Under the pieces are notes generated by a model, which was not told the DNA's origin, did no database searches, and was given only the letters and a program-made list of their open reading frames with translations. 64,000 nucleotides of DNA from Malacoraja senta (Eukaryota), in NCBI GenBank assembly GCA_038087875.1, contig CM075992.1, positions 7,194,001-7,258,000 on the forward strand, read 5' to 3'. This document shows, piece by piece, positions 1,177 through 58,049 of the stretch (positions within the stretch are counted from its first letter, which is position 1; each line of letters begins with the position of its first letter). Made by a program: the position numbers and the translations under genes.

Positions 1177-2236
1177 CCTGTATAACCGTGGTACCGAGAG
1201 CAACGATAGACACCATGATAGAAAGACTCAGGAGAGTGTAGGCGATGGGGGCTGAGAGTATTCCTCGGCCAGGCTCTATTAGTCTGACACCATCTTCTGC
1301 AAAGTGCAAATTAAATGAATGATTGAAAGAACGAGAGGGAATTGTCCACTGATAAAGACTCCTAATATTTCCCGGTTTACTCCCGGGATCAGGCAGACAA
1401 ACCGGCGACTGCTTTTAAAACTATTCAGCTCATAATATTTCAATTTAAGAACCATCATATGCAATATCTTCGAGATCTAAATATCGCATACAAAGGAAGT
1501 GTGACACATTCTGGACAGTTTCACACAGCAATGTATCACAATGAGGGGACCTCATTGAAACGTACAGAATAGTGAAAGGCTTGGATAGAGTGGATGTGGA
1601 GAAGATGTTTCCACTAGTAGGAGAGTCGAGGACTAGAGGTAATTGTCTCATAATTAAATGACGTTCTTTTAGAAAGGAGATGAGGTGGAATTTCTTCAGT
1701 CAGAGGGTGGTGAATATGTAGAATTATTTGCCACAGAAGGCTGTGGAGGCCGTCAGTGGATATATTTAAGGCAGAGATAGATTGATTCTTGATTAGCACT
1801 GGTGTCAGAGGTTATGGAGAGAAGGCAGGAGAATGGGGTTAGGAGGGAGAGTTTGACCAGCCATGATTGATTGGCAGATTAGACTTGATGAGCCGAATGA
1901 CCCAATTCTGCTCCTATCACATGATCTTGTGTTCTCCAAGTATCATTCGCTCAGATAAGCCCGAGGTACGAGGAAGGTAGCACTCGGCCATCTCTCCCCT
2001 TCTTCGTAAACTTTGCGCCCTTCCTCTCCACGTATGTACGCTTCCAGCAGCAGTTTCTAGTTGATCTGAAAGTGTAATGCATTCGACTTCCTTTACTGGG
2101 ACGGAGGAGATAAATAAATGCACGTACCATTCTTACATCGATGCAAATGCAGCTCCAGTTTTTCCGGCTCATTTGTGTCCGCCGTCGGTTCTTCAGGGTT
2201 ACACTCACTGACCGTTTCCCTGTCGTTATACTCCAT
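1177..2236 (-). CDS. Locus A: 5' exons of a type II transmembrane C-type lectin receptor (cytoplasmic and TM exons); the rest of the gene presumably lies left of the window
   Basis: Exon 1 2128-2236: MEYNDRETVSECNPEEPTADTNEPEKLELHLHRCKN, donor G|GTACGT; EPEKL is homologous to EPEDLKP/QPEKLKP in the paralogs. TM exon 1177-1296 (120 bp, TTTGCAG acceptor, GTAAGT donor, phase 1/1): EDGVRLIEPGRGILSAPIAYTLLSLSIMVSIVALGTTVIQ. Same size and phase as the TM exons of B, C, D, E and G. Confidence 0.7.
1535..1925 (+). mobile_element. CR1/HER1-type LINE 3' fragment
   Basis: Encodes the CR1 ORF2 C-terminal signature (…GLDRVDVEKMFPLVGESRTRG…FFSQRVVN) followed by a 3' UTR that recurs throughout the window. 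Confidence 0.8.
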
Positions 2237-2685
2237 ATTCTCAATTACAAAATCCTTTTCTTTATGAAGAATATATCAATTAGAGAGCAGCAGTTTTTGG
2301 ACTCGCATACTTCCTCATGCGGTACTTTCAGTATTGCGCGATGAAATGGACAAATAAGTTCTGCTGATTTAGATGTTTTTAAAACGGCTTCTCCAGCTTA
2401 ACGTGTGGAGCTCCGAGGCGAGGAATGTGCGTCTCGCTTAGACAATTCCCCCCTAACTTATGCTGTCAGAATGTTGGTTCCTAAACAGATCCGTGCGTGT
2501 ATGAACATGAAATGCTAGTTGGACTTCCGTGCTAACAGGGACCTCCAAAATAAATGAACAGCTTGTTCTGTCAGCTGTAGGTCAGGCTGGTGCAACTTTC
2601 ACAACTTCCTGGGATGCGAGCCGCTATATCAGCAATTAACAATGTGAGTGAATCTATCAGAAAAGGGAAACGAGTAATGCACTAG

Positions 2686-2992
2686 AGCGGCACAATGGGC
2701 AGCGGTAAGGTTGCTGTTCCACAGCGCCAGCGACCCGGGCTCGATTCTGACTACGAATGCTTTCTGGCCGGCGTTTACGCTAGCTCTCTGTAACCGCATG
2801 GAATTTCTCTAGGTGCTCTGGTTTCCTCCCACACTCCAAAGATGTGCAGATTTGTAGGTTAACTGGCATCTGTAAATTGTCCCAATTGTGTAGGATAGAA
2901 CCAGGGTACGGGTGATCGCAGGTCGGCGCGGACTCGGCAGGCCGAAGGGCCTGTTTCCACGCTGTATCTCTAAACTAAATTAAATTAAACTA
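2686..2992 (+). mobile_element. tRNA-derived SINE (HE1/V-SINE-like)
   Basis: tRNA-like head with A/B-box-like motifs, core GGTTTCCTCCCACACTCCAAAGA, LINE-like tail GGCCGAAGGGCCTGTTTCC…CTAAACTAAA. Confidence 0.75.
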
Positions 2993-4452
2993 CAGGACGG
3001 CAGAAACAAATAATCATGGGATTTAGACATGGGAGGGGGGTGGGGCAGTTAATAAAATAACATTCTGGAAGTTCATTGCGGTGGCCTAGATAAGGCGATT
3101 CACCGCCCCCCCCCCCCCCCGCCCCCTCTCCCTGTGACATTGTCGAGCAGTAAAACGATGGTCTTGCCAGTGACACCCAAATGCTTTAAAACGAATGCAG
3201 GCGTAAAACTGAAAATCAGGTCGGAATTGTATTAATACATTTATTCTCCATGTTGCTCTCTATGGCGAACACCGCGCGTTCAGGCGCAAATTACCACATG
3301 GTTCCAGGCCGGGGATAAGCTCCTTGGACCATACAAGTGAATATTAATAGCATCGAACACCTCACTGTAACGTCCTAATCTCTCCTGACAAAGAACACGG
3401 CGAGACTCCAGGAGCACAGTGTACAAATTTATATTATTAAGCATAAATATAGGTGGGGAGGAGAAGTGTGGATGGGGTGGGGGGGGGGTTATAAAGCGAA
3501 AAACGGGTTCATTGCATCGTCTGTGGGAAGGAATGGCAGATACTGGTTTAAACCGAAGATAGACGCAAAAAGCTGGAGTAACAGCGGGGTAAGCAGCATC
3601 TCTGGAGAAAAAGAATACGTGACGTTTTGCGTCGAGACCCTTCTTCCGACTGTGAGTCTGGGAAAAGGGAAACGAGAAATATAGACGGAGCTGTAGAGAG
3701 ATATATAGTACAAATAAATGAAAGATATGCAAAAAACAGTAACGATGACAAATAGAAACAAGTCATTGTGAGCTGTTTATTAAGTAGGAACGCGTTACAG
3801 ATAATGAGACTCAATAAGACGACTTTGAAGCTGGTACGACGGGTTGGGGAGGGATGGAGAGAGAGGGGATGCAAGGGTTACTTGATGTTAGATAAATCAA
3901 TATTCGTACCACTGGGCTGTAAGCTGCCAAAGCGAAATATGAGGTACTGTTTCTCCAATTTGCGTTTGGCTTCACTCTGACAATAGAGGAGGCCATTGCA
4001 TTAAACATTTTCAGTCGTGGGGAACCCCCCAATTTCTCTGGTAAATGCGCCTCTCTCATTCTAAGCTCATGACCCTGGAGAAATCTCTGAGCTTCGGAAA
4101 GCTGTCCAGCGAAAGAAGAGAGAAGGAGAGGCGGCATCGCCCATCACATCCAAGTGGACGTTCGGAGAGAGACCTGGGGCTCTGCACGGCCAGTTAAAAC
4201 AATGAGCAGAGGCAACCAGCACACAGTAATCTCTGTCGGACACCGTGCCGGCTGGAGTGTGGTGCTCAGAACTGGGCGGCGGCATCATTCCCTCCGCCTG
4301 CTTCTTCCAACAGCCCTCACAGATAGCATATCTTCTCCGAATCTTGGGGTGATTCATTGCTGAGCAAGTGGCGATTAAGCCAAGGGTTTGCAGTCGGTTG
4401 CCAGCGCAGCAGCGCACAGGCCGATTTCATTAGTTTATAACGTAACGTTTCG

Positions 4453-7055: not shown

Positions 7056-12390
<5,335 letters not shown>

Positions 12391-12816
12391 CTGCAAAATG
12401 CAAGTGAAAGTCATCGACGAAAGCAGGAGATGCAATGGCCTAATGGAAACGCCTTCAACACGTTCATGATTTCTATCAGGAGATTCTATAAACTGACCAA
12501 CACACATCTCTTAAAAGTAAGAACCGTCATTCACGGCGGAGTAGTAATCTTACAAATCATGGAATGCAGCAGTTGCCAGTGCCGTACAGTTCCACATAAC
12601 AGACACAAATTATAATTATAATTCGGACAGATGAACCCAAGGTACAAGGAAGAAAGAGCATTCGCCCACCGCCGTTCTTCCTCATCAACGTTTCACCATC
12701 TGCATCCCAGAAACATTACTTTCGGTATCTGCCACTAATTTAACTGACACTGTTATGAATTCCATCTCATTTACAGGATCTGATCAATTTCAACAAGCCA
12801 GTCCACTGATGTGAAG

Positions 12817-12907
12817 CAGGCGTCAGTTCTTTTGGCTAATATCTACCTTGATTCTATTCATTAGGTTGAACTTCTCTGTGTGTTTCCAAATCGTACTTTA
12901 CCGCCGT
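12817..12907 (-). pseudogene. Decayed exon 1 of locus B
   Basis: Aligns by eye to exon 1 of D/E, but ATG has become ACG, there are two in-frame TAG stops (…CCT AAT GAA TAG AAT CAA GGT AGA TAT TAG CCA AAA GAA CTG ACG CCT G) and no GT at the donor position. Confidence 0.6.
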
Positions 12908-15900
12908 CCTCTCAGCTGGAATATGTTTTTTTTAACAAGAGAAGGGAGGAGTTAGGGGGGGGGGGTTGTGGCGCAGGTGAGGGGGGGGGGACGGTTGTGG
13001 CGCAGGGGGAGGGGTTGTGGCGCAGGGGGGGGGGGGTGCAATCGGAGAGATGCAAGTTCTTGTTTACACCGCCCCTGGAGCAATTATATATTTTTTATGC
13101 GAAACATACAACTGCAAGTCTGTTCTGAATGTCATAACATGTAACGAGTTCTACCTCTTGATGCCGGATTCTAACGGCAGTAATCGGATATATGGATCTC
13201 GAGAAGTCACTCGGTCATTTCTGTCCGAACCACACTCTCGGACTCGTTTTTTTTAACCGAATACTACGGGTGTGTAGATACACACTCTCAGTGGAAGATC
13301 AGCCGGGCGTAATCTACCGTTCTTGCCCAGGTTCTAAGTGACGCCAGTTGCACAACAATATGACTGAATGTCACATTTTCTCTGCAAAATGAAACCGCGA
13401 ACCACCACATTTGTCATGACGTGTAGGAAGGGACTGCAGATGCGGGTTTACACCGAAGAGAGACACACAATGCTGGAGTAACTCAGCGGGTCAGGCAGCA
13501 TCTCTGGATAGAAGGAATGGGTGATGTTTTGGGCCTGAAGAAGGGTCTCGACTCGAAAGGTCACCCTTTCATTCTAACCAGAGATGCTGTCTGTCCCGCT
13601 GAGTTACTACACCATGTTGTATCTATCTACCTGTGTTATAACTACAGCCTTACACGTGTGGCTCAAGACAGCAACGTACCACCATCTCCCAGCTTTGAAT
13701 TAAACAAGTAACATGGAAACCGGCGGTTCCGCCCACTGAGTCGACGATGACCTTCGATCACCATTCATACTAGTTCAAAGTAATCCCGCTTCCTCGTCCA
13801 CTCCCTTCACACGTGGGGGAATTTACAGAGAACAGTTAAGCCACATACGCTCACGTCTTTAGCACATAGTAAGAAACCGGAGGACCACGAGAAAATCCAC
13901 ACGGTCACAGGGACAACTTGCAAACACCACACAGACAGCACCAGAGGTTAAGATCGAAGCCGGGTCTCTGGCTCGGCGAGCCAGCATCTCTTGCTGCGTC
14001 ACAGTGCCGCCCTAAATCCTTCTGACTCACTTAGACATAGGAATAAAATCAACATTTGTTAAAAGCTTCAACGCATTAAATAAAAATCCGTGCTTTCAGA
14101 TATTTCTAAACAAATACTCTGAAATACCACAAAACGACCCGACAAGCGGCAGTGGGGTACGATGATGAGTATGTGGAATGTATGTTTCTGTTCTTGCGGA
14201 CTGCTACTGGGTCTTTTGTGCCAACGCCTCCTCTCAATCCTTCTTGCGGATTGCTGCAAAAATGCCAACGAATGTGTTTGACTGTAATCTACAAATTATA
14301 TTGCTGGTATTTACCTGGTTTCAGCTCTTCTGGGTTTCTTTTGCCTTCTCTCATTGTCCTGGGATAAAAATAATCGATATTTTGATAATCCTCATTTAAC
14401 TCCATGTTCTCACATACACCTTGTCTCCCTCAACACCGTGAGAGGCAGTGGGAGCGATGTCACTTCTGGTTCCTAGTGTTGAACCTCCAGTGTTCAGCGG
14501 TGAAACTCACAGGACAGAACCTGTTCTGCTGCATTTTATGGCGTGTGACCACTTCTGCTTCCAGTTGCTGTGCTCCAGTTTCCATGTCGTGTATCAAAGA
14601 GCCTAGAGGAACCATCAGAGTTTCCAATCCTTAACGCGTTCTCCGACAATCTTTTATGATACAGATCACCGTGAAAATGTAGATGCTCATGGCCAGTAAA
14701 ACCCCAGTGAAAAAAATTGACCCCAGACGAGAGCAGGTTCATGAACAAATGCGATATTGAAGCCGGAGATGGTCACTGGGATCATATTGCATGCCCAATT
14801 CTTCAATACTAATACGTGCCTTTGCACCACTTCCCTAAACCGATGTCACATCATCACATTTTCATGGAATTCTCCAACAATGTTCCCAGACCTGTCTGCC
14901 CGTGTGGAAAGTTTAAACAGCATTTCGCTAACTCCAGTTCAATTGAGTTGACACTTAGCGAATGTCAGAGGTTATGGGGCGAAGGAAGGAGAATGGGGTT
15001 AGGACGGAGAGATAGATCAGCCATGACTGAATGGCGGAGTAGACATGATGGGGTGAATGGCCTAATTCTACTCATATTCCCTTAAGGCCTTATGCTTTTT
15101 GTTCACCTGGTGTATACTCCATTTCACTGAACTCCTGTTCCAGTCTATGTGTTCATTCCATTATGGACGCACTCCATTCAAATAAGTGTACACACAGTTC
15201 AACTGAGTATAAACAGTTCCAATATTCTCGAGTTTTACTGTCTGTGTGCCCAGTCTATTGAGTGTGCACTCCAGACTATGTGATACTCGCTTCTGCATCA
15301 TGCATTCGGCTATACATTGCTTCGTTTGCCCAAATAAGTGAATGGGAATGAAGATTATTGATTAGTACAGGTGTCAGACGTTATGGGGATGAGGCAAGAG
15401 AATGGGATTAGGAGGGAGAGATAGATCAGCCATGACGGAATGGCGGAGTGGACTTGATGGGCCAAATGGCCTAATTCTACTCCAATTCCTTATGACTTTA
15501 TGACCTAATATTGTGAACTCATTAATTGTCATTTAAAGATGGAGGAAATACCATTGATGAATCAACAACTGTAGTGCAGTCGTTTGATTTACATTGTGTT
15601 TTGTTATTGTGCAAAGTAGGCGCGTGTGTGGGGGACGAGAGGACAGTTTTATTGTTCATATATATAAAATGCCCAACTATTTTGGCGTACACCTGCTGAT
15701 GTGGGAAAGAGGAATCAGTCTGAGACGGACGAGAGGAACTTTACCGAAATGGTTCAAGATGGTATTTCTTGCGAAAAAGCTGGTAACAAGACAAGGCCGT
15801 TGAGGCCGTTTGCTGTGAACGTTGAAAAAATAACCAAACAAGTAAACAGACAGATGAGCGCGCAGGTTCACACCAGCCTAACCGATGCTTGGTTTTTAAT

Positions 15901-18045: not shown

Positions 18046-18092
18046 CATGCTTCCATATGGTATTGTGGAATGTGTTGCCATCACAGGCTCTG

Positions 18093-19673: not shown

Positions 19674-19728
<55 letters not shown>

Positions 19729-20578: not shown

Positions 20579-20609
<31 letters not shown>

Positions 20610-32704: not shown

Positions 32705-34792
32705 TTTCATCAGCCAGAGCCATTCTGAAGAAGGGCCCCGGCCCGAAATGTCGCTCATTATTTCTCTCCAGAGATGCTGCCTGCCCCGTTGAGTTACTCC
32801 AGCATTTTGTGTCTATCTTCCATTAAGATGATGTTGAAGTTCAAAGCCCGAGCTACCGGGCCCCTTTTTAATGTTACTTTTCACCTGCGATCCCACTAAT
32901 GGTGGATGTACACACCTGCACAGAGATTAGCATTAAACCCCTAGCCTGAGAACACGTTTGGGGAAGATGTAACTGACAGATCCGTCTGGCTCCCCGATGT
33001 CTGGGCGTTGTCACTGGAATCCAGCATCTCGAAGCAGAAGTGGTTGGATTTCAGTGATATCAGCAACTTCGTTTGTTTTACCACATAATATTGAAAGTAG
33101 GGCATGAGGAACTGTGAGGTCAGAAAAGACATCTGCTCTGACCCACTCTTACCAGTTCCTCAAAGACCAGATCGTCCTGCTGAGAACATGGAATTACTGG
33201 TCGATTATGAAAAAATCACTGCGCTTCAGGTCGAAGGGGACAATGGAGATGAATATCAGCCGGAAATACTGAAGCCATGTGCTATCACTGAACTCGTGTT
33301 TATCGTGCTTTCCCAGTTCCGATGAATGAGTTGGAATTAATTACACTTTCTTTTTAGTTAACCAGAGAAGTCGACAACATGGAAGTCGAAATGCAGGGTG
33401 AGGGGTGGACAAATGTTGAGGGGAAGGGGGAGAGATAAGAATTGTTGTTTGTCCTCTTTGTGTTAACGGGATCGAATGATATTTGGGTTTCTTGTGTGTA
33501 ACTTACAATGCCTCCACTACCTGCTCATGTCTATGTTTAGCCTGCTTTTGGTAAGTTTAACATTCCGATGTTGACAACAGCACTCGGCTACTCTGGCTGT
33601 TGCCAAATCTAACCCGAGGAAGGTAGACACAAAAATGCTTGAGTAACTCAGCGGGACAGGGCCGCATCTCTGGAGAAAAGTAATGGGTGACGTTCCGGGT
33701 CGGGACCCTTCTTCAAACTCGACCCGAAACGTCACCCATCCCTACTCTCCAGAGATGCTGCCTGACCCGCTGAGTTACTCCAGCATTTTGTGTCTAACTT
33801 CGATTTAAACCAGCATCTGCAGTTCTTTCCTACACAGCCATGATGCAATGACGGAGTAGACATGATGGGTCGAATGGCCTAATTCTGCGCCTTGATCTTG
33901 TGAATTTATGAGACTGCGCCGTCGAGCGAGTCGTTATTTTGGTTTCACTGATGACCCCCATTTACATTTTGCAGGACTTCGTCTCCAACGACGAGATCCT
34001 GCTCGAAGAAATGTCTCACCGCTGATCATGTACATTCTTCTGGGCCTCTGCATCCTGCTGTCCTCTCTGGCACTTGCTATTGCGCTAATACTGAGTGAGT
34101 TTAAACATTGAAACATTGTTCCGTAATGTCAATCTTGTGGCGCCATCTGGTGGTCGAGTCACTTTGGTCTCGAACCTGCGTTTGTCGAGCTCGAACTCTC
34201 GCGTGAACTGGCGTGATCTGGGCCGACCAATCAACGCAGTCAATTGTGCAAAGCACTGCCGTGTGCTGCACCCGTCACCTGACCAACCACACAGAGCTAG
34301 ACGTCACTTGGCATCCATCGCTTTTGTATTAATATTAAACTGTGTGCTTATATATTAAATGGACACGTGAACATCTTCAATCTTAAAATATAACGAGATG
34401 CTGAACACATGCAGTTAGTCAAACAGCATCTGTGCACAGAGAAACAGAGAAACAGCTAATGGTTCAGGTCTGAGATCGGTCGTTAGAACTGAGAAAGAAA
34501 GAAAACAAGTTAGCAACGAATGCGAGGGAGGACAATGGGTGAAAGAACTAGAATTTCCGGGATGCGTTGAAATAATGTCGCCATTAAATGCACACAATTA
34601 CATATGTGCACTCTGTTGCTAAATCTGCGACTTCTATATATATTTTTATTTGTCTCACGTCTTATTTCCAGTGTATGTAGCTTTTTTAAAATGATGTTTC
34701 ATTAGCTAATTGAGGAACATACTGGCATCGGCAAGCAGCCATTTGAGAGTAATATTAATTCAGTCTTGAGGAGGAACGCTAGCGGTGATAAA
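32705..34792. repeat. Inverted segmental duplication of ~42213-44523 (D versus E)
   Basis: The reverse complement matches across promoter, exon 1, intron and TM exon (e.g. ORFs 32941..33132- and 44095..44286+ are near-identical). The copies differ by substitutions, and E has an extra insertion at ~42656-42890. Confidence 0.9.
33188..34094 (+). pseudogene. Locus D: inverted paralog of E; ITIM-bearing exon 1 plus TM exon; the spliced junction reads TGA; the rest runs into an assembly gap
   Basis: Exon 1 33188-33278 MELLVDYEKITALQVEGDNGDEYQPEILKP ends CCA T|GTGCTA. TM exon 33975-34094 starts GA (…LRLQRRDPARRNVSPLIMYILLGLCILLSSLALAIALIL). T+GA makes a stop, whereas E has G+GA (Gly). Confidence 0.7.
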
Positions 34793-41200: not shown

Positions 41201-44039
41201 CCCGACATGTTGCCTAGCTATTCCTTCCACAAATGCTGCCTGACGTGCTGAGTTACTCCAGCACTTTGTGTTTTGCCCAACGGCATGAAGTTGCCTGGGG
41301 ACGATGCAAGTGGTAATCATTGACGGACAGATAGGATTTGGGGATCAGAGGCAGTGCAGATGCAGATGCTGGCTCCACATCCAATTACGGTGTCTCTGTA
41401 GAATGAGGGGATTCCCCGAGAAGGTGCAGGGAAGCTGCGCGCGTTACACGCAGCAGAACTACTGATTAGATGTAGGTTTAAGTTTATTATTATCATCTGT
41501 ACCGAAATACAGTGGGAAACTGTTGCTTGCTATCCAATCAAACCACATAATACGTGTAAGAAAGAACTGCAGATGCTGGTTTAAATCGAAGGTAGACACA
41601 AAATGCGGGAGTTACTAAACGGGTGAGGCAGCATCTCCGGAGAGAAGGAACGGGCGACGTTTCTGGTCGAGACCCTTCTTCAGATAATACGATACGTGAA
41701 CTAAATCAAGCCAAACACAATTTCAACAGATAGAGGGAAGGGAAAGCTGCTTCTTTGTAACTGTGTTAACTGTCCTAGACTAAACTGGCGAGGCCATTAA
41801 CTCACACCTGTGCCACACGGTTATGGGATAACATCTTGGGATAATCTCACGTCATCTTCCTTATTCTTGGCTTGTGCACGCCCCTGCCATTCCTGGGATA
41901 TGTTAACCCAGCCGGTTCCTCACACGCGACTAAACCACATCACTGGTGGCACCAATAAACAGGGACAGAGGTCCGGAATATCTTAAAACCCTTCAGGAAT
42001 TTTCACTTCTCCAAATTCAGCTGCTCCAACCGTGGACAGGCCCGTTAAATACTGGGATTGTAGCTTTAACGTGCTTTTTATGGCCACAAGATGCGGAATC
42101 CGGAATTGAAAGTATAATGTGCAACCGGTAGTGAAAAAGACCTGTGGCCCAGGCTTTGAGCAAACCCAAATTTCCATTGATATTGTGTTACCGTCTACAC
42201 ACACCATCCACGTTTATCACGGCTAGCGTTCCTCCTCAAGACTGAATTAATATTTCTCTCAAATGAATGCTGGCGGATTCATGCATGATCCTCAATTAGC
42301 TAATGAAACATCATTTTTAAAAAGCTACACACTCACAGGAAATACGATGTGAGACTAAGAAAAAAAAGAGAAGTCACAGATTTAGCAACAGAGTGCACAA
42401 ATGAAATTGTGTGCATTTAATGGCGACATTATTTCAACGCATCCCGGAAATTCTATTTCTTTCACCCATTGTCCTCCCTCGCATTCGTTGCTAACTTGTT
42501 TTCTTTCTTTCTCAGTCCTAACGACCGATGTCAGACCTGAAAAATTAGCTGTTTCTCTGTGCACAGATGCTGCTTGACTAACTGAATGTGTTCAGCATCT
42601 CGTTATATATTAAGATTGAAGGGGTTCGCGTGTGGAATGAACACCCATTTAATATTTAAGTAAAGTAAAGTAAATTTATTTATTTATATAGCACTTTTCA
42701 ATCAATTTCAATCAAAGAAGCCAAAGTGCTTTACAGAGAAAATTATCAAATAATAAAAAGAGGTAGAAAAAAAATGTCACAACACACTATAAGAGATTCA
42801 ACACGAATATCCCCCCTACAGCAGAATCTATACTCTCCACTGTGAGGGAAGGCACTAAAATGTCCAGGCCTCTTCCTCCTCCTCCTTTTTAAGCACACAG
42901 TTTAATATTAATACAAAAGCGATGGATGCCAAGTGAAGTCTAGCTCTGTGTGGTTCGTCAGGTGACGGGTGCAGCACACGACAGTGCTTTGCACAATTGA
43001 CTGCGTTGATTGGTTCAACGCCAGTTCACGCGAGAGTTCCAGCTCGACAAACGAAGGTTCGAGACCAAAGTGACTCGACCACCAGATGGCGCCACAAGAT
43101 TGACATTACGGAACAATGTTTCAATGTTTAAACTCACTCAGTATTAGCGCAATAGCAAGTGCCAGAGAGGACAGCAGGATGCAGAGGCCCAGAAGAATGT
43201 AGATGATCAGCGGTGAGACAATTCTTCGAGCAGGATCTCGTCGTTGGAGACGAAGTCCTGCAAAGTGTAAATGGAGGTCATCAGTGAAACCAAAATAACG
43301 ACTCGTTCAACGGCGCAGTCTCATAAATTCACAAGATCAAGGCGCAGAATTAGGCCATTCGACCCATCATATCTACTCCGTCATTGCATCATGGCTGTGT
43401 AGGAAAGAACTGCAGATGCTGGTTTAAATCGAAGTTAGACACAAAATGCTGGAGTAACTCAGCGGGTCAGGCAGCATCTCTGGAGAGAAGGAATGGGTGA
43501 CGTTTCGGGTCGAGTCTGAAGATGGGTCTCGACCCGGAACGTCACCCATTCCTTCTCTCCAGAGATGCTGCCTGTCCCGCTGAGTTACTCCAGCATTTTG
43601 TGTCTACCTTCCTCGGGTTATATTTGGCAACAGCCAGAGGAGCCGAGTGCTGTTGTCAACACCGGAATTTTAAACATACCAAAAGCAGGCTAGACATAGA
43701 CATGAGCAGGTAGTGGCGGTATTGCAAATTACACACAATAAACCCAAATATCATTCGATCCCGTTAACACAAATTGGACAAACAATAATTCTTATCTCTC
43801 CCCCTTCTCCTCAACATTTTCCCGCACCTCTCCCTGCATTTCGACTTCCATGGTGTCGACTTCTCTGGTTAATTAAAAAGAAAGAGTAATTAATTCCAGC
43901 TCATTCACCGGAACTGGGAAAGCACAATAAACACGGGTTCAGTGATAGCACCTGGCTTCAGTTTTTCCGGCTGATATCCATCTCCTTTGTCCCCTTCGAC
44001 CTGAAAAGTGATATTTTCATAATCGACCAGTAACTCCAT
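35292..44039 (-). CDS. Locus E: ITIM-bearing type II TM C-type lectin receptor; six exons seen, last CTLD exon not visible (adjacent to the gap)
   Basis: Exon 1 43952-44039 (MELLVDYENITFQVEGDKGDGYQPEKLKP); TM 43138-43257; neck 39859-39930 (MTQTMEIKRSDADFQMELSQWKSN); neck 36968-37039 (VTGTCENAASSLSELQAEISRLRA); CTLD1 35890-36041 (SSISNAFNQWTLFNQRLYYFSSNRDRWDKAVKICAAMNSKFVVINSNEEQ); CTLD2 35292-35401 (DYIRSNINVDTWIGLHDAAVEGTWRWVDGTDYDTNV). All in frame with AG/GT boundaries. Confidence 0.85.
38978..39278 (+). mobile_element. ~300-bp bipartite RTE-derived non-autonomous retroelement with an 11-bp TSD, nested in an old CR1 fragment (~38440-39570)
   Basis: TSD GTAGTGTAGGA at 38967-38977 and 39279-39289. 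RTE-type 5' UTR motif GGTCCTCCAGGTTGGAGGTTGAGC…ACAACCC…CGTAAAA joined directly to an RTE-type ORF end (TGGAGGACCTTCGTTGCT, WRTFVA…). Confidence 0.65.
39955..40440 (-). mobile_element. CR1/HER1-type LINE 3' fragment
   Basis: ORF 40106..40306: DTVDVGKMFPLVVESRTRGQSLKIK…FFSQSVVNLW. Confidence 0.8.
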
Positions 44040-44434: not shown

Positions 44435-45293
44435 TCAACGGGACAGGCAGCATCTCTGGAGAGAAGTAATGAGCGACATTTCGGGCCGGGACCCTTCTTC
44501 AGAATGGCTCTGGCTGATGAAAAGCGACAGAACAGACACCAGGATGCAGATACACAGAAGAGTGTAGATAATCTTGGGTGGTAGATTTCGTCGAGCAGTA
44601 TCTGCTCTTCGGGGCCAATGTTCTGCAAAGTGCAAATGAAACTAATCACTGAAAGCAAAATATTGATTCCTCCAATGGAAAATATACCAATTTTGTCCCG
44701 GTTTAAACTTGGCGACGGCCAATGGAGCCGCCGGCTATTGTCAACACCACAATTTTCAACTGACAAAAATATTTGACTTCCTTTGTCTAATCTTTACGCA
44801 AAACAGGCTGGGCATAGACCTGAGTAGGGATTGGAGTTGGTGTAAGTTACACATCAGAGAAAACCTGAAGTCTGAAGAAGGGTCTCGACCCGAAAGGTCA
44901 CATATTCCTTTTCTCCATAGATGCTGCCTGACCCGCTGAGTTACTCCAGCATTTTGTGTCTATCTGCAGACCTAAAGCATCATTCGCTCCGTAAGCAAAG
45001 TTCAAATGGGAAGAATCAACAAAACTCACCCATCCATCCCTCTTTTTCTTCAACATTTTGCCCATCCACCCCCCCCCAGTTAAATTCTAGCCTCCCCCGC
45101 TCGTTACGATTAAATTGTAATTAATTCAAGCCCATTCATTTGAATTGGAAAACTAGGATAACTAGGAAACATTATAATATATTATAAACATAGTGATGAA
45201 ACCTGGCTTCAGATCTTCCGGCTCAGATTCGTCTCCATTCTTCTCATCGATGTGAAACGCAGTGGTATTTACATAAATGTCCATTCCTTCCAT
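44435..45293 (-). pseudogene. Locus F: truncated paralog of C (exon 1 plus a TM exon broken at ~44522 and fused to the upstream region of E)
   Basis: Exon 1 45203-45293 MEGMDIYVNTTAFHIDEKNGDESEPEDLKP. The TM exon starts at 44622 and matches C up to …SVLSL (44522), then switches to sequence shared with the D/E upstream region. The frame stays open to a stop at 44435. No neck or CTLD exons of its own. Confidence 0.72.
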
Positions 45294-46487: not shown

Positions 46488-46880
46488 GAAGATTCAGGAT
46501 CAGTTCCTGTGGATTGGAGGATAGCTATTGTTATCCCACTTTTCAAGAAAGGAGCGAAAGGGAAAACGGGGAATTACAGACCAGTTAGCCTGACTTCGGT
46601 GGTGGGAAAGATGCTGGAGTCAATTATTAAAGAGGTAATAATGGGGCATTTGGATAGCAGTAAAATGATTAGTTCAAGTCAACATGGGTTTATGAAAGGG
46701 AAATCATGCTTGACTAATCTTCTGGAATTTTTTGAGGATGTGACAAGTGAAATGGATGAAGGGGTGCCAGTGGATGTAGTGTATCAGGACTTTCATAAAG
46801 CCTTTGATAAGGTCCCGCACGGGAGACTGGTGACTAAAATTAGAGCACATGGTATTGGGGGTAGGGTGTTGACATGGATA
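46488..46880 (+). mobile_element. CR1-type LINE reverse transcriptase internal fragment at the F/G junction
   Basis: DWRIAIVIPLFKKG…GNYRPVSLTSVVGKMLESII…QHGFMKGKSCLTNLLEFFE…DVVYQDFHKAFDKVPH. Confidence 0.92.
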
Positions 46881-47647
46881 GAAATGGACGCGCCTGTGAA
46901 GACATTTAAACTCAAATCAGAAACACTGGGACACGACATAGTCTCACAACTCTCACTGTTCACTCAGATTTTGCACATGGAATACGTTTATATATTGTTT
47001 CATACTGCGGATTAAGTCCCCACACTGCGTTACTTAACGGGACGTCATCAATCAAAGATGTTCTTGTATTGAATTCACACGAACATCGTCCTCAACTAAC
47101 GCCAGTGATTACTGAACAGCATCGCGTTGTACACGCAGAAAAAAACATTCTAAACATCTTTGTCCTTGAAACTCAACTCGTCACTGGCCACACACCGTCC
47201 GATCTTTGTATCCTTTAACCTAAACCACCCTTCTGTTCCGCCTGCGGACACACGATTGTGGACGCAGCCCAGGCCTCCCTTCCATTGACTCCATCTACAC
47301 TTCCCGTTTGCTCAGCAAGGGCCAGTCTCACCCCGGTTACTCCCTCTTCTCCCCTCACCATCAGGCAAGCGCGCACCTCTAGCTTTTGGGAATGTTTCTT
47401 TGCAGCTATAAGCAGGTAACTGAACCATCCTAATAACAACTTGAGAGCGGCCCTGACCTACTGCCCACCTCATTGGAGACCTTCGGACATTGTTTAATCG
47501 GACTTTACTAGATGTTATCTTGCGCTAAACGTTATTCCCTGTATCATATATCTGTACACAGTGAGTGGCTCGATTCTATCATGTGTTGTCTTTAGCTGAC
47601 TGGTTAGAACGCAACAACAACTTTTCACTGCACCTTGGTATACGTGA

Positions 47648-47679
<32 letters not shown>

Positions 47680-48089
47680 CTAAGCTAAGCTAACCTAAAC
47701 TATAACATTCATATTGCGAATGATTAATGCTAGACGAGCAGTCCCTCCAGTGGTCGCCATACTTACTCGCCCTCAGCCGTGAAATCTCAGCTTGAAGTTC
47801 GGAGAGTGAGCTGGCTGCATTCTCAAAGGTTCCTGTAACTGGAGAGACACAACTGTTTAGATAATGCGGATCCTTTTTCTCAATAAAATTGTTCCTCCGC
47901 CGGCACTCGGGGATTCTTCCTTCCATGGTTCACCCTGTCTATGGCTTATACATTGAGGATCTGAAAAATTGTAACGGCCTTGTTCGCATTAGCCTGTAAA
48001 AAGAATCCAGGAAATGAAGAACGGATATGATCACCCATTGAATTATCAGTGATGGCTCCCACTGATTGTCACCGGAAGCTTGCGTCCTT

Positions 48090-48090
<1 letters not shown>

Positions 48091-48149
<59 letters not shown>

Positions 48150-48375
48150 TATTTTATTGTCATTGCACATAAGTGCAACGAGATTTGGTATGCAGCTTCC
48201 ATCCGATGTCATAACTTACACAACTAATACAATTTAGATTTAGATACCCCGAGAACATGGTTTATAAAAAGAACAGTAAAACAGTAAAAGTCAAAACAGT
48301 CTAAAGTGCAACTGTGTCTGTGCGACGTGACCATCCGAGGGTGACAGTCCATGGAGGTGGGGGGCACTCAAGACG
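48091..48375 (-). mobile_element. LINE 3' end with a (TAA)n/(TTA)n tail
   Basis: (TAA)n at 48091-48146 abutting TTTTATTGTCATTGCAC; absent from the paralogous intron of E. Confidence 0.5.
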
Positions 48376-51300
48376 GTCGATGATAGCGATGTCAACATTT
48401 GAAACAAGGAAGATGGACACGAAAGAGGAAGGTCAGTCATAACTTATATTGATTATGAACATTAAAAAAACATGGACGCGTTAGAGCGAAACCATATCTA
48501 ACCATTTTATGTATTTAATGTATTTAACCAATAAACATACAGGTTTATGAGGTAGATGCATTGATGAGATATGTGGGAATTTTGCAAAATCCTGTCATTA
48601 AGTATCACATATTAAGTTTGCATGGAATTATTAATGTATAGTTAGTAAACAATAATCGTATGGATAGAAAAAATACAAACACTGTATCTCGAAACTAAAC
48701 TAAACTAAACTAAACTAGCGGCGGCAGATATCAAACATTCAGGTAAATAAACGTATTAAGTGAAACGAGTGACATTTCTTTTTGTGCCGCGAAATGTTCG
48801 TGTTTGGAATATTGGGTAGCAGTGGCGTCAGGTTGAAAGGTGCATTCAAGCAGGACCTGGGTAAGTCGGAAAAGGGAGCAGGAGACTGCGCTGACAGAGG
48901 AGGGCATATCTTGGACGAGGTGGATTGATATTAAATTGATTTGATGTGCGCTCAGCGGGCAGTGTGGGCAGTTCCAAGCTTTTCTTCATGATATTCTGCC
49001 TGATCATTCCTGATATTGTACTGTGGTTATTCACATCACCCTGCAAGAATATAGCAAGACCCCAAGATCCACTAGTTGCAGTTGGAAAGAGTTCGGGTTA
49101 GCCACGGGCAGACTGGATTGGACTAAGTAGATTGACCATAAATGGATCTGACGTGCGATCAGCCAGCTTTGTGCTTTTATTCCAAGCTTTTCTCCATGAT
49201 ATCCCGGACATTTTCACTTTGCCATTCTAAGGCTTGAGTTTTTGCTCACGACGTTTCATACCTAACGGTTTAATTCCACCATTCGATCTCACCCTCCTTG
49301 TCAATGAATCTCTGGAATGGACACAGCTTAGATTGCGAAGTGACTGCGCAGTGTAGTGAATATTGGGCATGTCGGTCAAAGGACCCGGTATGTTGCTATT
49401 GAATAAGAGGTCACTGAGCAAATAGAGCTGAGAGGGTCTCTTCCCAAGGCTGAACCTCTCTCTTTAAACTCCCCTCACATTGAGCACACAAGCAGGGACA
49501 CGGTTGCCTTTCACTCTCATTGTACTGGTGACCCCGCCCGAAGGAAATACAACCAATTCCATTCCACAGGAGTTCTATCACCCGCCCTTCCATGTAATCT
49601 TCCCTTCCAGGGCAACTGGTATCCTTGGTAAGAAAGGATGAGTAGCTGGGCATGTTTAGCAATCCCCCCCCCCCCGCCCCCTCCCCTCCCCAACACACCC
49701 ATGCCAGATTCACAAGCAACTGAATCATCCGACCACAACCAGCGACAGCTACTATCTACGTCATTGGTGACCCTCGGACTATCTTTGGTTCGATTGTAAT
49801 CATGTCACGATCCATCCGCTGACTGGTTTGCACGCAACAAAGGTTTTTGACTGTACCTCCGGTACACGTGAAAATATACTAAACGGAACTGAACTGCACT
49901 ATTTAGATATTTTACCGGGTGATTCATTGGTGACCTGCGATCCGTCTGATGAGCAGCTCACTTACGCTCTCTCAGCAGTGCAATCTCAGCCTGAACGTCG
50001 CAGAGTGAGCTGGTTGCTTTCTCAACGTTTCCTGTAACTGAAGACGGACGACAGTTTAAGTTACGTGGAGCCCCTTTCTCCGTGACCCTGTTCCTGCACC
50101 GTCACCCCGCGTTCCTTCCAGTTTACCTGACGTTTACGGTTTCTACAAGTACGGACGGCACGGTGAACTGTGTACAATTGTGGTCACCCTATCGTTGTGA
50201 GAATTCCATTAAACTGTAAAGAGTGCAAAAATAAATTTACGAAGATGTTATCCGGTCTGAAGGGTTTGAGTATCAGAAGAGTTTGAATAGTCTAGTATTT
50301 TATTCTCTCGGGTGTATAGGGACTGGGGAGTGAATTTGTACACGTCCATGAAATCATAAAATGCATAGAAAACGTGGAATGCCACGGTCCAGTGAAAGGG
50401 AGTCCAGGTTTAAGTTGAGTGAGGAAAGATTTAAAATGACCCGAGGCGCAAAGTTTTCGCACAGTGTGTACTTTCATGGAATGAGCTGCCAAAATAATGA
50501 GAGAGGCGGCTACAATATCGTCATTTAATAGACCACTCGACAGGATAAATTGATACAAAAATTTAGGAGGGTTATGGACCAGACACAGTCAAAGTGGGTT
50601 TCATTTGAACATCAAACTCCTTGTCGTCAGAATGTATGGCCCACACTCTCGAGCTTTGAAAGTGTGATCTAAACTCTAGAAAACAGCAGAAAAGAATAGT
50701 CTGTGGCTCTGTGAACCGGGACTGGACATCAGATGAGTAGCAAATGCCCAGTAGCTGCTATGCATCATCGTCGTCGCCAGTGGCCGCTGTTATCCGAGAG
50801 ATGTGAGCTGCAGAGCACTGTCGTTCAGTCAAGGATCCAGCAGGTGGCGCAACTTGTAAGAAATGGCACTTAGCTGTTTTTGACTCGTAATGGCACTTAG
50901 CTGTTTTCCCCCACAAAAGCTGCCTAAACTGCTAAGTTACTCCGGCACTTTGCGATGTGACCAACTGAAGATTGAGGGAAGTGGCAGTCGTGGATGGATA
51001 GATAGGAATTGCGGATGAGGGGAATTTGTGAGGCAGAGACTGGCTATCCCAAGTTCGAAAAACAGTTCGACAGGTACATGGATAGGACAGGTTTGGAGGT
51101 GATATATACAAAACACAGGCAGGTGGGACTAGTGTAGATGGGACATATTGGTCGGCGTGGGCACTTTGGGCCGAAGGGCCTGTTTCCAACTGTAGCACAC
51201 TAAGCCTCTATGAGAAAGTAGCGACGTGATTTCACGAGTAGCGGGTGAGGAGGGGGGGGGGGGTTGGCATGACACAACATTATTCCCTACACACTAGGGA

Positions 51301-52354
51301 CAATTGACCCATTGATCCGCAGATTTATAAGGATAGAGAAGGTGAGATTGTATGTCTACATTACAGAGATCTTTCAGATTCGGTTATTACACTCACCATT
51401 GCTCTTCCATTGGGAACTTTCCATCCGAAAGTCAGCATCTGACCTCTTCATTTCACCCATCTGTGGCACTGAAATAGAAACTAAGATTTGAATATCACAC
51501 GTTCGATATAATTTGCCCCCACAACATCTACAGTACCATGATGCCCATTATTCGAGGCGGAGAATGAAAGAGATGGGAGATTCTGCAGGAATTCTGTTGA
51601 CCACAAGTTAGGATATGTCAGGATATGTCATTCCTTCCACTTCCTTGCACGCTACAAACACATCTCTGGTTGCAACAATAAACAGGGACAGAGGGCCGGG
51701 ATATCTTAAAAACGTTCAGGACTTTCCACTTCTCCGAATTCACCTGCTCCAAATTAGTTCCATACTGCAGCTGTCGCGTTGTCGTATGTTTGTCTTCGAA
51801 TACTACCGCTTATATGATGGGAAATCTGGAAAGGAAAGTATAACGAGCAACTGAGAAGAAAACGACACATTGACCCGTGCTTTGAAATAACCCACATTGC
51901 CCTTGATATTGGGTTACCGACTACACAACCCTTCAAGCTTATATCACGACCAGCGTTGCTCCTCAAGACTGAATTAATGTTACTTCTCAAATTAATGCTT
52001 GCGGATCCATGTAGATTCCTCATTTAAATTTCGAAACTAATAATATAAAAGCTACAGACACTAGAAATCTAAAAATTAATAAAGAGTATCCAGGAAAAGC
52101 CAAGCGTCCGTGAAACGCAAATTTAGCAACAAAATACAGAGACAAGGGTGGTTGAGTGCCCATGTAGTAGCGACTGTATTCTACCGCATCACAGAAGTTC
52201 TACCTATTTCACCGCTTCCACCCGCCCCCCTCCGCCCCCCAACGTAGTTGCTAACTTGTGTTATTCTTTCTCAGTTCCAACGAATGATCTCAGATCTGAA
52301 ACATTAAATGTTTATCTGTGCAGCGATACGGCCTGGCCTACTGATGGTTTTCAC

Positions 52355-54069
52355 TGGAGCCAGGATTTTGCCATAAATGCCTTGTGCCTTTAAATGCCTT
52401 TTTTGATGATTTTAGGAAGATAATGCCTTTTCATCATTGTGCCTAAATCAGCCTTTTTTTGCCGTTAAAACGTAACTACAAGACAATTTAAACCACAGCG
52501 GCGAAACCCGGCTGTAAATGCGTGTTAAGTTGATTGGAGAGGGGTGCGTGGGAAAGCGTTCAGTCTTTGCAGACTGGAGTCATGTTTTAAGTAGGTGTGA
52601 AGTGGTGATTGGGGAGGTGTAGGTGGGAAGGGTCGCGTCTTTTCAAACTGGAGTCAAGCTGTGAGTAGGTCTGAAGTGGTATTTGGGGACCGGGTACCAG
52701 GGTTAAGTTTCTGTTTATCGAACCTGCAGTAGAACTCGTTCAGATCGTTGGTCAGCTGAAGATTGTCCAAGGAGTGGGGGGGTTTCCTCTTGTAGGCTTG
52801 TGATTTCTTGCAAGCCCTTCCACACTGAAGAAGAGTCATTTGCTGAGAACTTGCTCCTCAACTTCTCAGAGTACCTTTCCTTGGCTGCTCTGATTCCCTC
52901 TTCTCAGCTTGTACTTGGCCTGCCTGTAGAGGTCTGCATCCCCGCTCCGATGATCTGCCCCCTGCACGCGTCAAAATGCCTAATGTCAAGTCAAGGCCTT
53001 GGAAAAAAACTGAACGATTTGGTGAGAGTGTACGGGAGAGATATATTCTCTACAGACTTCTGAGAAAGCAGTGGACCATGAGAAGACATATATCGTCTCC
53101 CAGCATGTACAGACAGCTAAACACAAGTTCGGCGGCAGAGAACTGAAGGTAGGAAATACCCAAGCTTGTCTCCTCACAACATTTACTGCTGGCTCCATTC
53201 GCAAATATGAGTTTTCGAGTGATCTGTGCAACGCATTCATTAATGCTGGAATTCCACTGTGGAAATTGGAAAACAAATCTCTCAGATGTTTTTTAGGGAA
53301 ATACACAGGAAAATATACCAAGCGAGTCATCATTACGGAAATATTATATTGATAGCAACTTCAACATTGTTGTGCAGAAAATTAGAGATGAAGTTGCATG
53401 CAACAAAATAAGGATCTCAATAGACGAGACAACTGATGCTGTGGGGAGATATGTTGCCAATGTGGTCATCTGTACTCTGGAGGCAGGTCAACCATCAAAG
53501 GAGTATTTCTTGACATCGGAAATATTGGAGAAGTCAAAGATTGCTATTGCTATTGCTTAGTTGTTTACATCTTCACTTGCTCTACTTTGTACTTAAAGTT
53601 CCTGGCGATGTAGGTAAAGACATACAAAGAAAATGTGAGAGGGGGTTTAGCTAACAAAGATCTTGAAGAGATACAAAACATAGCTAAAGTTCTCAAAGGT
53701 AGCTGTAATGCACAAGATATCGACATGAATATAGAGTCTGTAGCTCGTTTCGGGCATGCACCAGTGACCTCAGCTGGGGTAGAAGGAAGATTTTCACAAC
53801 TGAAGCATATTCTGTCTGACAGATGGCATAGTTTAACTCAGGATAAATTGCAAAAATGCTAGTAATTAGGTGCAACCAGGCAACTGTGGGTCATTTAATG
53901 TAGTATACCTTTTATATTATCATTTTAACCATATTTTGGTGGCGGAAATAAATGCCCTTTTATGCCTTTGTTGTCAATAAATGCCTTTTCCGAGCCTTTT
54001 TTGTAATTTTATTATGCCTATTTGCCTGCGTATTTCAGAGATTTTTAGCGCCTAAACATCCTGGCTCTA
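52355..54069 (+). mobile_element. hAT-superfamily DNA transposon (degenerate transposase) with 8-bp TSD and short TIRs; nested LINE fragment at ~52640-52945
   Basis: TIRs TGGAGCCAGGAT / ATCCTGGCTCTA. TSD GTTTTCAC (52347-52354) / GTTATCAC (54070-54077), with a single GTTATCAC at the paralogous site 27815-27822. ORF remnants ISIDETTDAVGRYVANV and APVTSAGVEGRFSQLKHIL (hAT catalytic and C-terminal dimerisation-type motifs). Confidence 0.88.
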
Positions 54070-55167
54070 GTTATCACCATTTTCAACTTGTTTAAACTTA
54101 CTCAGTATAAACGCAAGAGCAAGCGACAGAACGGACACCACGATGCAGATAGCCAGAAGAGTGTAGATAATCTTGGGTGGTAGATTTCGTCGAGAAGTAT
54201 CTGCTCTTCGGGGCCAATGTTCTGCAAAGTGCAAATGAAACTAATCACTGAAAGCAAAATATTGATTACTCAAATGGAAAATATACCAATCTTGTCCCGG
54301 TTTAAACTTGGCGACGGCCAACGGAGCCGACGGCTATTGTCAACACCACAATTTACAACTGACAAAAATATTTATCTTCCTTTGACTAATCTTTACGCAA
54401 AACAGGCTGGGCATAGACCTGAGTAGAGAGTGGGCTGGAGGTGATTTAAGTTACACACCAGAGCAAAGCTGAAGTCTGAAGAAGGGTCTCGACCCGAAAG
54501 GTCACCTATTCCTTTTCTCCATAGATGCTGCCTGACCCGCTGAGTTACTCCAGCATTCTGTGTCTATCTGCAGACTAAAGCACAATTCGCTCCGTAAGCT
54601 AAGTTCAAATAGGAAGAATCAACAAAACTCACCCATCCATCCCTGTTTTTCTTCAACATTTTGCTTATTACCCCCCCCCCCCCCTGCAGTTTAATTCTAG
54701 CCTTCCCCCCGTGTGTTACGCTGAAAGTGTAATTAATTCAAGCCCATTCATTTGAACTGGGAAACTAGGATAACTAGGAAACATAATAATATATTATAAA
54801 CATAGTGATGAAACCTGGCTTCAGATCTTCCGGCTCAGAATCGTCTCCATTCTTCTTATCGACGCGAAACGCAGTGGTATTTGCATAAATGTCCATTCGT
54901 TCCATGTTCTTGGCTGGGCGATCTGGCCTGTGTTGAACTTTTAAGAAGAAAAGAGAGAGATGAAGATTCTGAGCTAAAATAGTTCCTCATGCAGCACTTC
55001 CAGGTTTCCGTGCAAATCAGTAAAAAATCCAAATCTATTTTGCTGAATTGATGGCATTGCAAAAATACTTCTGCTATTAGATTGTGTTTTCAAGTGACAT
55101 TTATTGGAGTCCATGTCCTGCAAAGCCGAATTGAAAATCATCACTGAAAGCAAACGAGGAAATCACT

Positions 55168-56070: not shown

Positions 56071-56856
56071 GATAATTTGAGTACACATGTATCCATATGT
56101 TAATATGGGTGTACACCTAATGTGTACAATCTTACCTTCCAAACCTCATATTTCATATACCTCATAGACCGCATATTTGCTTGGATGAAATCCGCCCTGC
56201 CATTTCTACGCCCATATTTTTAACTTATATATATATCGCGACATCATTTCACAAACTTCCTTACTCTTCACTACTCCATCCATTCTGTTGTCACCTGTAA
56301 ACTTAACCGACCCAGGATCACGTCCTTCCACCACTAACTTCTGTCAACTCAGGGTATTTCAGTTCTGAATTCAAACTATTCATCGTGGATCCCATACAAG
56401 TTATTCTTTTGGATCCGACTGCCATTAGGAGATTTATCGTATGTCTTTCTAAAGTCCAAGTATCCAATATCCACCGCCATAGAGTTATAGAGTCATAGAG
56501 CGTGGAAACAGGCCCTTCAGTCCAACTTGCCCACACCAACCAACATGTTCCACCATCACTAATCCCACCTGCCTCCGTTTGGCTCGGATCTTTCCAAACC
56601 TTTTAGACTGACTTTTTCAATCCTGGCGTTATGATTCTTTCACGCAGATTGTCGGTGTACCGACTGCCAGTGACATGATAAGTAAAACGGGGGTAAAAAT
56701 ATCACGAAGTTCCTGAGTGAATTCATCCGCTTCACTAATTGCGATAAATCCAAGGTTTTCTTTGGTGATGTGAAACCTCTGCATTCAGAGATACTAATCA
56801 CGTCCACTCTTCCCTGTCCACTGTTGAATAAATGCAGACATGTTAACAATATTTGC

Positions 56857-57196
56857 TTAGTTTAGTCTAGTTTAGTTTAGTTTAGTTTAGAGATACAGCG
56901 CGGATACAGGCCCTTCGGTCCACCGGGTCCGCACTGACCAGCGATCCCCGCACATTAACACAAACCTACACCCACTAGTGACAATTTACACTTATGCAAA
57001 GTATACAAACCCATGCCAATTAACCTACAAACGTGCATGTGTTTGGAGTGTGGGAGGAAACCGAAGATCTCGGAGAAAGCCCACGCGGTCACGGCGAGGA
57101 CGTGCAAACTCCGTCAGACAACACCTGTAGTCGGGGTCGAATTCGGGTATCCAGCGTTGTAAAGCGGCAACTCTACCGCTGCGCTACCGTGCCGCT
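56857..57196 (-). mobile_element. HE1/V-SINE-like SINE
   Basis: Reverse-strand copy with a (TTTAG)n tail. Confidence 0.78.
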
Positions 57197-58049
57197 TATT
57201 TATACACAACCCTTCATTAGATTATTTGTTCACGCTATAAAATACATTTAAGACGATAACACTTCCCCCCAAACGACTCAGTTCAACTGCGTTTAACGCC
57301 ACTTCAGTACAGAAAAGCTAAAGAGAGCGTAGATGACCTGGCGGGGGTGTTTTTCTTGACCAGGCTCCAGTGGTACGTTCTACAGAGTACAAGTGAAAAC
57401 ATCACTGAAAACACATGATAGAGACGGTCAATGGAATTTATTTCAAACATTTTCCGATTGGGATTTAGGGAAATGTCAGAGCAGGGACTTTGATTTGTTA
57501 CCGTCTATCAACGGTCCAAAACACATGCCCTCAATCTTGGAAAGTACACCCGCAATACGCTGGGGTTTTGCTGGGCAGAGGATTGAAGTGTTGCAAATGC
57601 ATGACAACGGGCGTAACATCTTATTCGCTCAGGTAAGATGGAAAAGCAGGAAACGAAGAGCATTCTGCAGCCCCAGCATCAACCCTTCTTGTTCGGTAAC
57701 ATTTCTCCACCCCTCCCCCTGAATCATTACTTGCCGTCTTTGCTGAACTGAGCATGTGAACAAAATTCCTATTCATTCAGTGAAATTGAAATATAAACAT
57801 TCCCCATTTCTCCCAGTTCAACCTCTGATATTCACCTGGCTTTAAATTCCCGCACCGTTGTCGTGCTCTACGGCCAGGCAGACGAAGAGTTTCATAATCT
57901 TCCATCCTGTTCTCAGCTAGAAGACCTTCTTGCCGTTGAGGAAACTGGAGGCTGTGATGCAGTTTTTGGACGCACCCTTTTCCGCATAATGTATTTTAGT
58001 TTGCCAAGTATCATCTATCATCAGCGAAATGTAATGTCAGCATCTTGCC

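Follow-up and report, generated by a model that had tools for sequence, protein, structure and literature searches.

Tyrosine motifs in the cytoplasmic tails of lectin receptors have been described in several systems that resemble the subject of this work, a gene cluster for C-type lectin receptors of type II in a 64,000-nucleotide stretch of the genome of the skate Malacoraja senta (GenBank assembly GCA_038087875.1, contig CM075992.1; G000:C16:7194001-7258000 in our notation; hereafter, the window). In prolectin (CLEC17A), whose gene and the DC-SIGN cluster are some 7 Mb apart on chromosome 19, Grb2 was reported to bind YxNx (PMC2709368), and the YENV sequence of CD22 was also tied to Grb2 (PMC6286995). 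The YENF sequence of CLEC10A (MGL) is described both as an endocytic motif and as a half immunoreceptor tyrosine-based activation motif (hemITAM), and the corresponding motif of ASGR1 is YQDL (PMC7404283). Activating members of paired receptors, such as DCAR, the counterpart of DCIR, are described as having a short tail and a transmembrane (TM) segment that bears a charged residue (PMC3533184, PMC2756403). It was also reported that lectin signalling is only loosely predicted by motif class and that small changes of context matter (PMC5932189).

We think it probable that the skate genes, which encode group II C-type lectin receptors, form a cluster under birth-and-death turnover, inherited one multipurpose YxN-Φ tyrosine motif (Φ is a hydrophobic residue) and show no fixed division into activating and inhibitory genes. 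Judging from the gene models, this is likely an ordinary gene family with fast turnover rather than the paired on/off system that a preliminary description of the window had proposed for its eight loci (A to H, Table 1). A further gene, Z, lies outside the window.

The cluster shares different features with each of the known systems. Like the products of the CD209/CLEC4M/CLEC4G/FCER2 cluster and CLEC17A, its proteins are of type II, with neck repeats and a carbohydrate-recognition domain (CRD) bearing the EPN and WND signatures, and the YxN of their tails is of the kind through which prolectin was reported to bind Grb2 (PMC2709368); unlike in those proteins, the skate tail is single and short, with one tyrosine near its start. 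In this respect it resembles ASGR1, CLEC10A and the amphibian and reptile hepatic lectins, in which a single tyrosine motif near residue 5 is described as serving uptake and signalling (PMC7404283). Unlike ASGR and CLEC10A, however, none of the 11 relatives scanned has the Lectin_N neck (PF03954), and the CRD of C carries EPN, not QPD. The flanks of the skate cluster also differ from the genes that surround ASGR1 and CLEC10A at 17p13. Clustered type II lectins are likewise a feature of DCIR/DCAR and the Dectin-2 family, and here E fits the consensus of an ITIM (immunoreceptor tyrosine-based inhibitory motif) and Z has a short tail and a TM arginine; yet the DCIR and DCAR ectodomains are reported to be 91% identical (PMC3533184), versus 44-46% for E against C or Z, and the Dectin-2 family is placed in the natural killer (NK) complex (PMC2756403), the flanking matches here containing none of the marker genes of that complex. 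Teleost lectins (zebrafish illr, salmon and carp sclr, clec4c) are also fish type II proteins with YxxL/I motifs (PMC3319919, PMC6400144), but sclra and clec4c are described as lying in NK-complex synteny.

The nearest counterparts are RefSeq elasmobranch models (e.g., Amblyraja XP_032868211-216, Leucoraja XP_055486676-680, Rhinoraja XP_078282799), among them orthologues of C (75% identity) and E (83%) that agree in exons and in tail pattern, named CD209-like, CLEC4M-like, CLEC17A-like or hepatic lectin-like; compared with them, the residues at -2 and +3 from the tyrosine vary by species, and the M. senta genome has more broken copies. Searches of the open literature, subscription journals not included, brought up no description of the cluster or of its tails.

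The tail tyrosine motif

Each exon class was mapped by profile search over the window and over extensions of 100 kb to its left and 300 kb to its right, and genes were called as exon models on the genomic sequence and compared with the exon joins of RefSeq relatives. These relatives were gathered via CRD exons and full-length models, so that odd members such as orthologues of Z may escape. From the 63 relatives of the family clade, six without a first exon were removed and identical starts were merged, leaving 50 distinct N-termini. A tyrosine is present within the first 11 residues of 44 of them; YxN and YxxΦ occur in 30 each and both together in 24, and D, E or N stands at -2 in 39. The ITIM consensus and YxxM were found in two N-termini each, and an acidic residue followed by YxxL/I in 14. 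In the window itself, read in six frames with the real exons included, the ITIM consensus is met within the first 12 residues of 12 out of 467 Met-started open pieces of 30 residues; therefore, the consensus alone is weak evidence, and the shared position of the tyrosine rests on homology. The first exons of the eight loci are indeed homologous to one another. These comparisons indicate that the tyrosine is ancestral and that the motif classes are variants at its neighbouring residues.

The tail motifs quoted in the preliminary description are all present in first-exon-like segments, with none in A, and it called the first exons correctly and was right that the tails differ among loci. For B it quoted no tail; the motif there is EDYQNI. 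The two classes overlap, because the YxN site for Grb2 also occurs within VDYENI. YKNM, taken to be an activating motif, is absent from all three skate orthologues of C, whose tails read DIYENT, DIYEDA and DMYATA (YxxM in 0/3), and lack of conservation in orthologues was what the preliminary description itself had counted against its proposal. F and G have Thr at the position of the Met of C. The ITIM-like character of E survives as a possibility; among E orthologues, VDYENI is found in four Amblyraja models, and the two Rhinoraja models, with DDYENI and EDYENL, have no V at -2. The same search for relatives returned a bat CLEC10A that starts with YENF, and a representative profile search, the results of which were dominated by multi-CRD proteins, added one relative with DYQNI.

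The way such receptors would work can be outlined as follows. On a myeloid cell, a Ca2+-dependent CRD carried on a coiled neck would bind mannose/fucose glycans. The (D/E/N)xYxN-hydrophobic motif would act as a YxxΦ uptake signal and, once phosphorylated, could dock Grb2 and perhaps Syk or SHP, as for YENF of CLEC10A and YxN of prolectin. Drift at -2 and +3 among copies would give rise to occasional ITIM or YxxM look-alikes. We infer the cell type, the ligand and the partners, while exon structure and lesions were observed directly.

Exon plan and turnover of the cluster

According to exon profiles and models, the gene plan comprises seven exons: one for the tail, one for the TM segment, two for the neck and three for the CRD. 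By profile search, the window contains eight first exons and two degenerate ones, eight TM exons, two of which are broken, and full CRD exons as follows: exon 5 and exon 6 three times each and exon 7 twice. Seven of the eight first exons are on the minus strand, and the cluster runs past the window on both sides. All seven exons lie inside the window, and the type II layout of tail, TM segment, neck and single CRD on three exons is complete, only in B and C. The claim that eight loci share one exon plan was not confirmed, E having six exons, A decaying and four of the eight copies (D, F, G and H) being broken. It does hold that the TM core is free of charged residues in A, B, C, D, E and G. 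The EPN and WND signatures, which mark a CRD of the mannose/fucose type, are present in C and Z and absent from A and B. Most likely, sugar-binding uptake receptors, predicted to recognise microbial sugars, are encoded by the intact genes, which are C, a B-type copy located on another contig and probably E and Z.

Segmental duplication blocks of 85-94% identity, with breakpoints inside exons, join pieces of the cluster. Together with the broken copies and the stops or frameshift in two further copies outside the window (I and J, described below), they make up a pattern of birth-and-death turnover. The breakpoints of F and G (44522 and 46880) are located within contiguous sequence, away from any gap. 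In G, the E-type neck exon is followed by 14 bases of exon 5 and then by unrelated repeat-like DNA with no lectin domain; no neck or CRD exons belong to H. In D, exon 1 ends in T (33278), which makes the exon 1-2 junction codon TGA. The base calls were compared with short-read contigs from one DNA run, perhaps of the source sample, a comparison that tests base errors and not other individuals. The junction T of D is carried by a contig with no differences over 33153-33420, a second contig there being the E copy. The regions of D, E, F and part of G are each matched by a separate contig with no differences; over 34993-54990 the comparison is dominated by repeats and does not cover the F and G breakpoints directly. 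In the reads there are also an exon 5 and a neck exon of E type that differ from both E and the G-linked fragment (2/8 and 3/8 of the listed variants shared).

Unlike that of E, the TM exon of D (33975-34094) has a Met where the hydrophobic core begins; translation restarting at this Met after the junction stop, with a tail-less form as the product, is a speculative possibility. The CRD of E is a short form without the first cysteine pair, and in E orthologues the sugar site is EPN or QPN with WHD. Exon 7 of E was found nowhere in the assembly by exon profile search, and the gap between D and E probably hides it along with further E-type exons.

The exons of A beyond the second sit left of the window, up to 10.5 kb away. 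Its usual exon-1 donor is lost, the usable one being probably after 2128, the exon-3 donor has changed from GT to AT and the exon-4 acceptor is disrupted; these lesions mark A as a decaying or neckless locus. B, whose third intron contains a 200-N gap (10175-10374), is probably not a Ca2+-dependent sugar binder because EPN and WND have been lost. A B-type gene on a small unplaced contig (G000:C4926:18251-27910) has the tail EDYQNI, intact EPN/WND and duplicated exons 6-7. A two-exon tail with two tyrosines was considered for B-type genes and rejected, the second exon bearing a stop in three of three copies. C combines an uncharged TM segment and two neck exons with its EPN/WND CRD. The orphan module upstream of it may be an alternative first exon of C or a relic; no model among the relatives matches such a tyrosine-free alternative first exon (30403-30322).

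We also considered that the first exons might be internal ones and found no support for this, as RefSeq orthologues begin at the same Met. RefSeq skate models have the same first exon, the same exon 1-2 join and, in C and E, the same joins at donors that look weak. A GAGGAA(C/G)T box, which we take to be a PU.1-like site, is located 78-81 bases upstream of the ATG in six of 13 first-exon modules (A, C, D, E, F and G; positions 2314, 28750, 33108, 44119, 45374 and 54986). About 0.02 such boxes are expected per 250 bases, the six being homologous copies and not independent occurrences; their place upstream of the ATG counts against the first exons being internal.

Table 1. Features of the lectin gene cluster; positions are those of the window unless a scaffold is named. 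TM, transmembrane; ORF, open reading frame; aa, amino acids.
Feature	Position	Strand	Tail motif (position)	Description
Gene Z	G000:C16:7168662-7177600	+		16-25 kb left of window; open 212-aa model
Locus A, exons 1-2	1177..2236	-		ATG 2236; TM exon 1296-1177; no tyrosine motif
Locus B	7056..14405	-	EDYQNI	Complete 7-exon ORF, 247 aa; ATG 14405
Vestigial second tail exon, B intron 1	12847..12915	-		In-frame stop
Locus C	20917..28669	-	DIYKNM (YKNM, 28651)	Complete 7-exon ORF, 247 aa
Orphan first-exon module 5' of C	30322..30403	-		B-like; Tyr to His; good donor
Locus D, exons 1-2 only	33188..34094	+	VDYEKI (33200)	Inverted copy of the E start, 94% identical
Assembly gap	34793-34992			200 N; D and E both run into it
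Locus E, exons 1-6	35292..44039	-	VDYENI (44027)	In frame
Locus F	44522..45293	-	YVNT (45275)	Exon 1 and 101/120 bases of TM exon; cut at 44522
Locus G	46880..54905	-	YANT (54887)	C-type exons 1-4 and E-type neck exon 47838-47767
Locus H	57293..57905	-	EDYETL (57902)	Short exon 1; TM exon 57379-57293 frameshifted, early stop

Relatives and genomic position

The closest relatives of the cluster are RefSeq models of skates, rays and sharks, and the assignment to DC-SIGN/CLEC4-like type II lectins of cartilaginous fish is well founded. A search with one exon of C returned skate proteins at 77-91% identity, and a full-length profile returned 117 proteins, mostly of sharks and rays, whose automatically assigned names include CD209-like and hepatic lectin-like; the Lectin_C domain was detected in all 11 relatives scanned. 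In a quick tree of 92 rows, supported by SH-aLRT (Shimodaira-Hasegawa-like approximate likelihood ratio test) values only, C clusters with three skate proteins (support 99) and E with six proteins (support 100). E falls inside a 31-row group that includes sharks (support 98), and C falls outside that group, which indicates that E and C are old paralogues; they are identical at 39 of 84 residues (46%) over CRD exons 5-6. Phylogeny, one of the checks suggested in the preliminary description, thus groups E and C with their skate orthologues, whereas deep support in this tree, which contains no mammalian CD209, is weak.

On the left the cluster is flanked by DOCK-C exons, for which DOCK6 was the only structure match, and on the right by cNMP-binding (cyclic nucleotide monophosphate), SYDE-type RhoGAP and P5A-ATPase exons, as found by a scan of 103 of 108 candidate open reading frames. 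The right-hand neighbour is annotated only as cNMP-binding in look-ups, no structure match was obtained for the P5A-ATPase exon, and a Sec1-family gene is present on the same scaffold. The cluster is likely orthologous to the CD209 region, an assignment drawn from these gene contents. The best single-CRD structure match was DC-SIGNR (118 bits), with Mincle at 114 and CLEC10A at 101; DC-SIGN and langerin also fell within 20 bits, and therefore no one-to-one orthology can be assigned.

Paired receptors and other explanations

Gene Z contradicts the view that activation in this family must be wired into the tail. It has canonical splice sites, a 31-base first exon, a tyrosine-free tail and a TM arginine, together with a single neck exon, one fewer than in the plan, and a CRD with intact EPN/WND. 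It is possible to imagine a classical paired system in which ITIM-bearing E-type genes inhibit and Z activates via an adaptor with an ITAM (immunoreceptor tyrosine-based activation motif), as in DCIR/DCAR; we regard this as unlikely. The open model of Z with its short first exon is laid out in the way described for the activating members of receptor pairs (PMC3533184, PMC2756403), a TM exon of the zeta/FcR-gamma family is present in the genome (one match, G000:C5:19864556), and VDYENI is common to E and Amblyraja. However, the highly similar ectodomains expected of paired receptors were not found: Z and E share 37 of 84 residues (44%) over CRD exons 5-6, Z being nearer to C (70%), which has no ITIM, and by the same measure E and C are too far apart for a classic receptor pair. 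A charged TM residue is rare (one of 58 relative TM segments, one position off that of Z), the Arg codon of Z is one base away from the Leu codon of its paralogues, and no Z orthologue was retrieved among the relatives found via CRD exons and full-length models. The missing neck exon of Z and the Rhinoraja tails without V at -2 also speak against such a pair. That skates independently built a DCIR/DCAR-style set from a CD209-region cluster, E gaining an ITIM and Z losing the tyrosine and gaining a TM arginine, is a doubtful history. It would imply that the ITIM of E arose by one change beside the ancestral tyrosine, and that the Z tail was shortened and the arginine acquired for an ITAM adaptor, steps that we likewise hold to be improbable.

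It is very unlikely that the pairing is wired into the tails alone, with inhibitory VDYENI set against activating YKNM, YxN and hemITAM in related receptors. The tail of E does fit the ITIM consensus and that of C the YxNM one, both in probably intact genes, and across skates there is a consistent difference between tails of the E type and those of the C type. Small changes of motif context are reported to alter lectin signalling (PMC5932189), a point that cuts both ways here. On the other hand, three of the four tails designated as activating (F, G and H) and one of the two inhibitory ones (D) belong to broken copies, YxxM is absent from the three C orthologues and present in two of the 50 relative N-termini, and the hemITAM-like pattern of H is common in the family and does not define a special class; H itself, proposed as a hemITAM receptor, has a frameshifted TM exon and no ectodomain. 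The paired model of the preliminary description is thus largely unsupported because of the broken copies, the unconserved YKNM, the overlapping classes and ectodomains that are 46% identical. We consider it extremely improbable that D, F and G came about as assembly artefacts and that the real genome contains several more intact E-type and C-type genes. D and E do meet at a gap, the short-read contigs hold an unmatched E-type exon 5 and neck exon, and Amblyraja has four E-type models, but the breakpoints of F and G are in contiguous sequence, D, E, F and part of G have contigs of their own, and the D stop codon is present in reads; missing copies would add genes, not repair D, F and G.

Several points weigh against our preferred reading, that of a birth-and-death cluster with one multipurpose motif. 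The RefSeq elasmobranch models are automatic predictions with automatic names. V stands at -2 in both D and E, and VDYENI is kept in the four Amblyraja models, which makes a real ITIM lineage possible. C-type tails are consistently without a hydrophobic residue at +3 (T or A instead), a lineage-level contrast to the E type. Gene Z has the predicted layout of an adaptor-coupled activating receptor, as in DCAR. The E-type exon 5 in the reads matches neither E nor the G fragment, indicating that at least one further E-type copy is unassembled and leaving no clean copy count; the remainder of D as well as that of E may lie within the gap. Synteny, another check suggested in the preliminary description, gave a mixed picture for the CD209-region assignment: DOCK6, SYDE-type RhoGAP, P5A-ATPase and cNMP exons were seen, whose human counterparts lie at 19p13 with CD209; the cNMP exons resemble those of PNPLA6, but a search of this scaffold for patatin gave no match.

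Further copies and other loci

Outside the window, two more seven-exon copies are located on the plus strand: copy I (window +80.9-92.5 kb), with the tail Tyr replaced by Cys and a frameshift in exon 7, and copy J (window +119.7-130.5 kb), with the tail YYANI and stops in exons 6 and 7. Gene M (G000:C16 ~7343200-7400500, plus strand) has a first exon without tyrosine, a TM exon and 15 neck-type matches, several of them weak, over 53 kb; exon profiles found no CRD exons in it, and it may be a very long-necked receptor, or its CRD may be absent from the assembly. Gene K (L018 6960-L019 2975) has neck and CRD exons with QPQ/WHD, and no TM exon was found for it. Orphan pieces include a frameshifted last CRD exon (L011 ~8457-8605) and lone first-exon modules (L015 8890-8967 and L018 1145-1234). 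A second, more distant lectin cluster of about three genes, one of which starts with YDDF, is present on the same scaffold (G000:C16:3397000-3473000). An open Tc1/mariner-type transposase frame of 343 aa was also found (L026:6142-7170).

Conclusions

In this contribution, we described an automatically named family of elasmobranch lectins with a tail like that of CLEC10A/ASGR1 and a position that is apparently that of the CD209 region, which is a modest addition to what is known of these receptors. If E inhibits and Z activates via an adaptor, paired lectin signalling would have arisen separately in cartilaginous fish, and E and Z, if this is true, would be an early case, within the oldest lineage of jawed vertebrates, of paired receptors derived from a single multipurpose motif. 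The combination of a CLEC10A/ASGR1-like motif with an apparently CD209-like position is relevant to how group II lectins descended.

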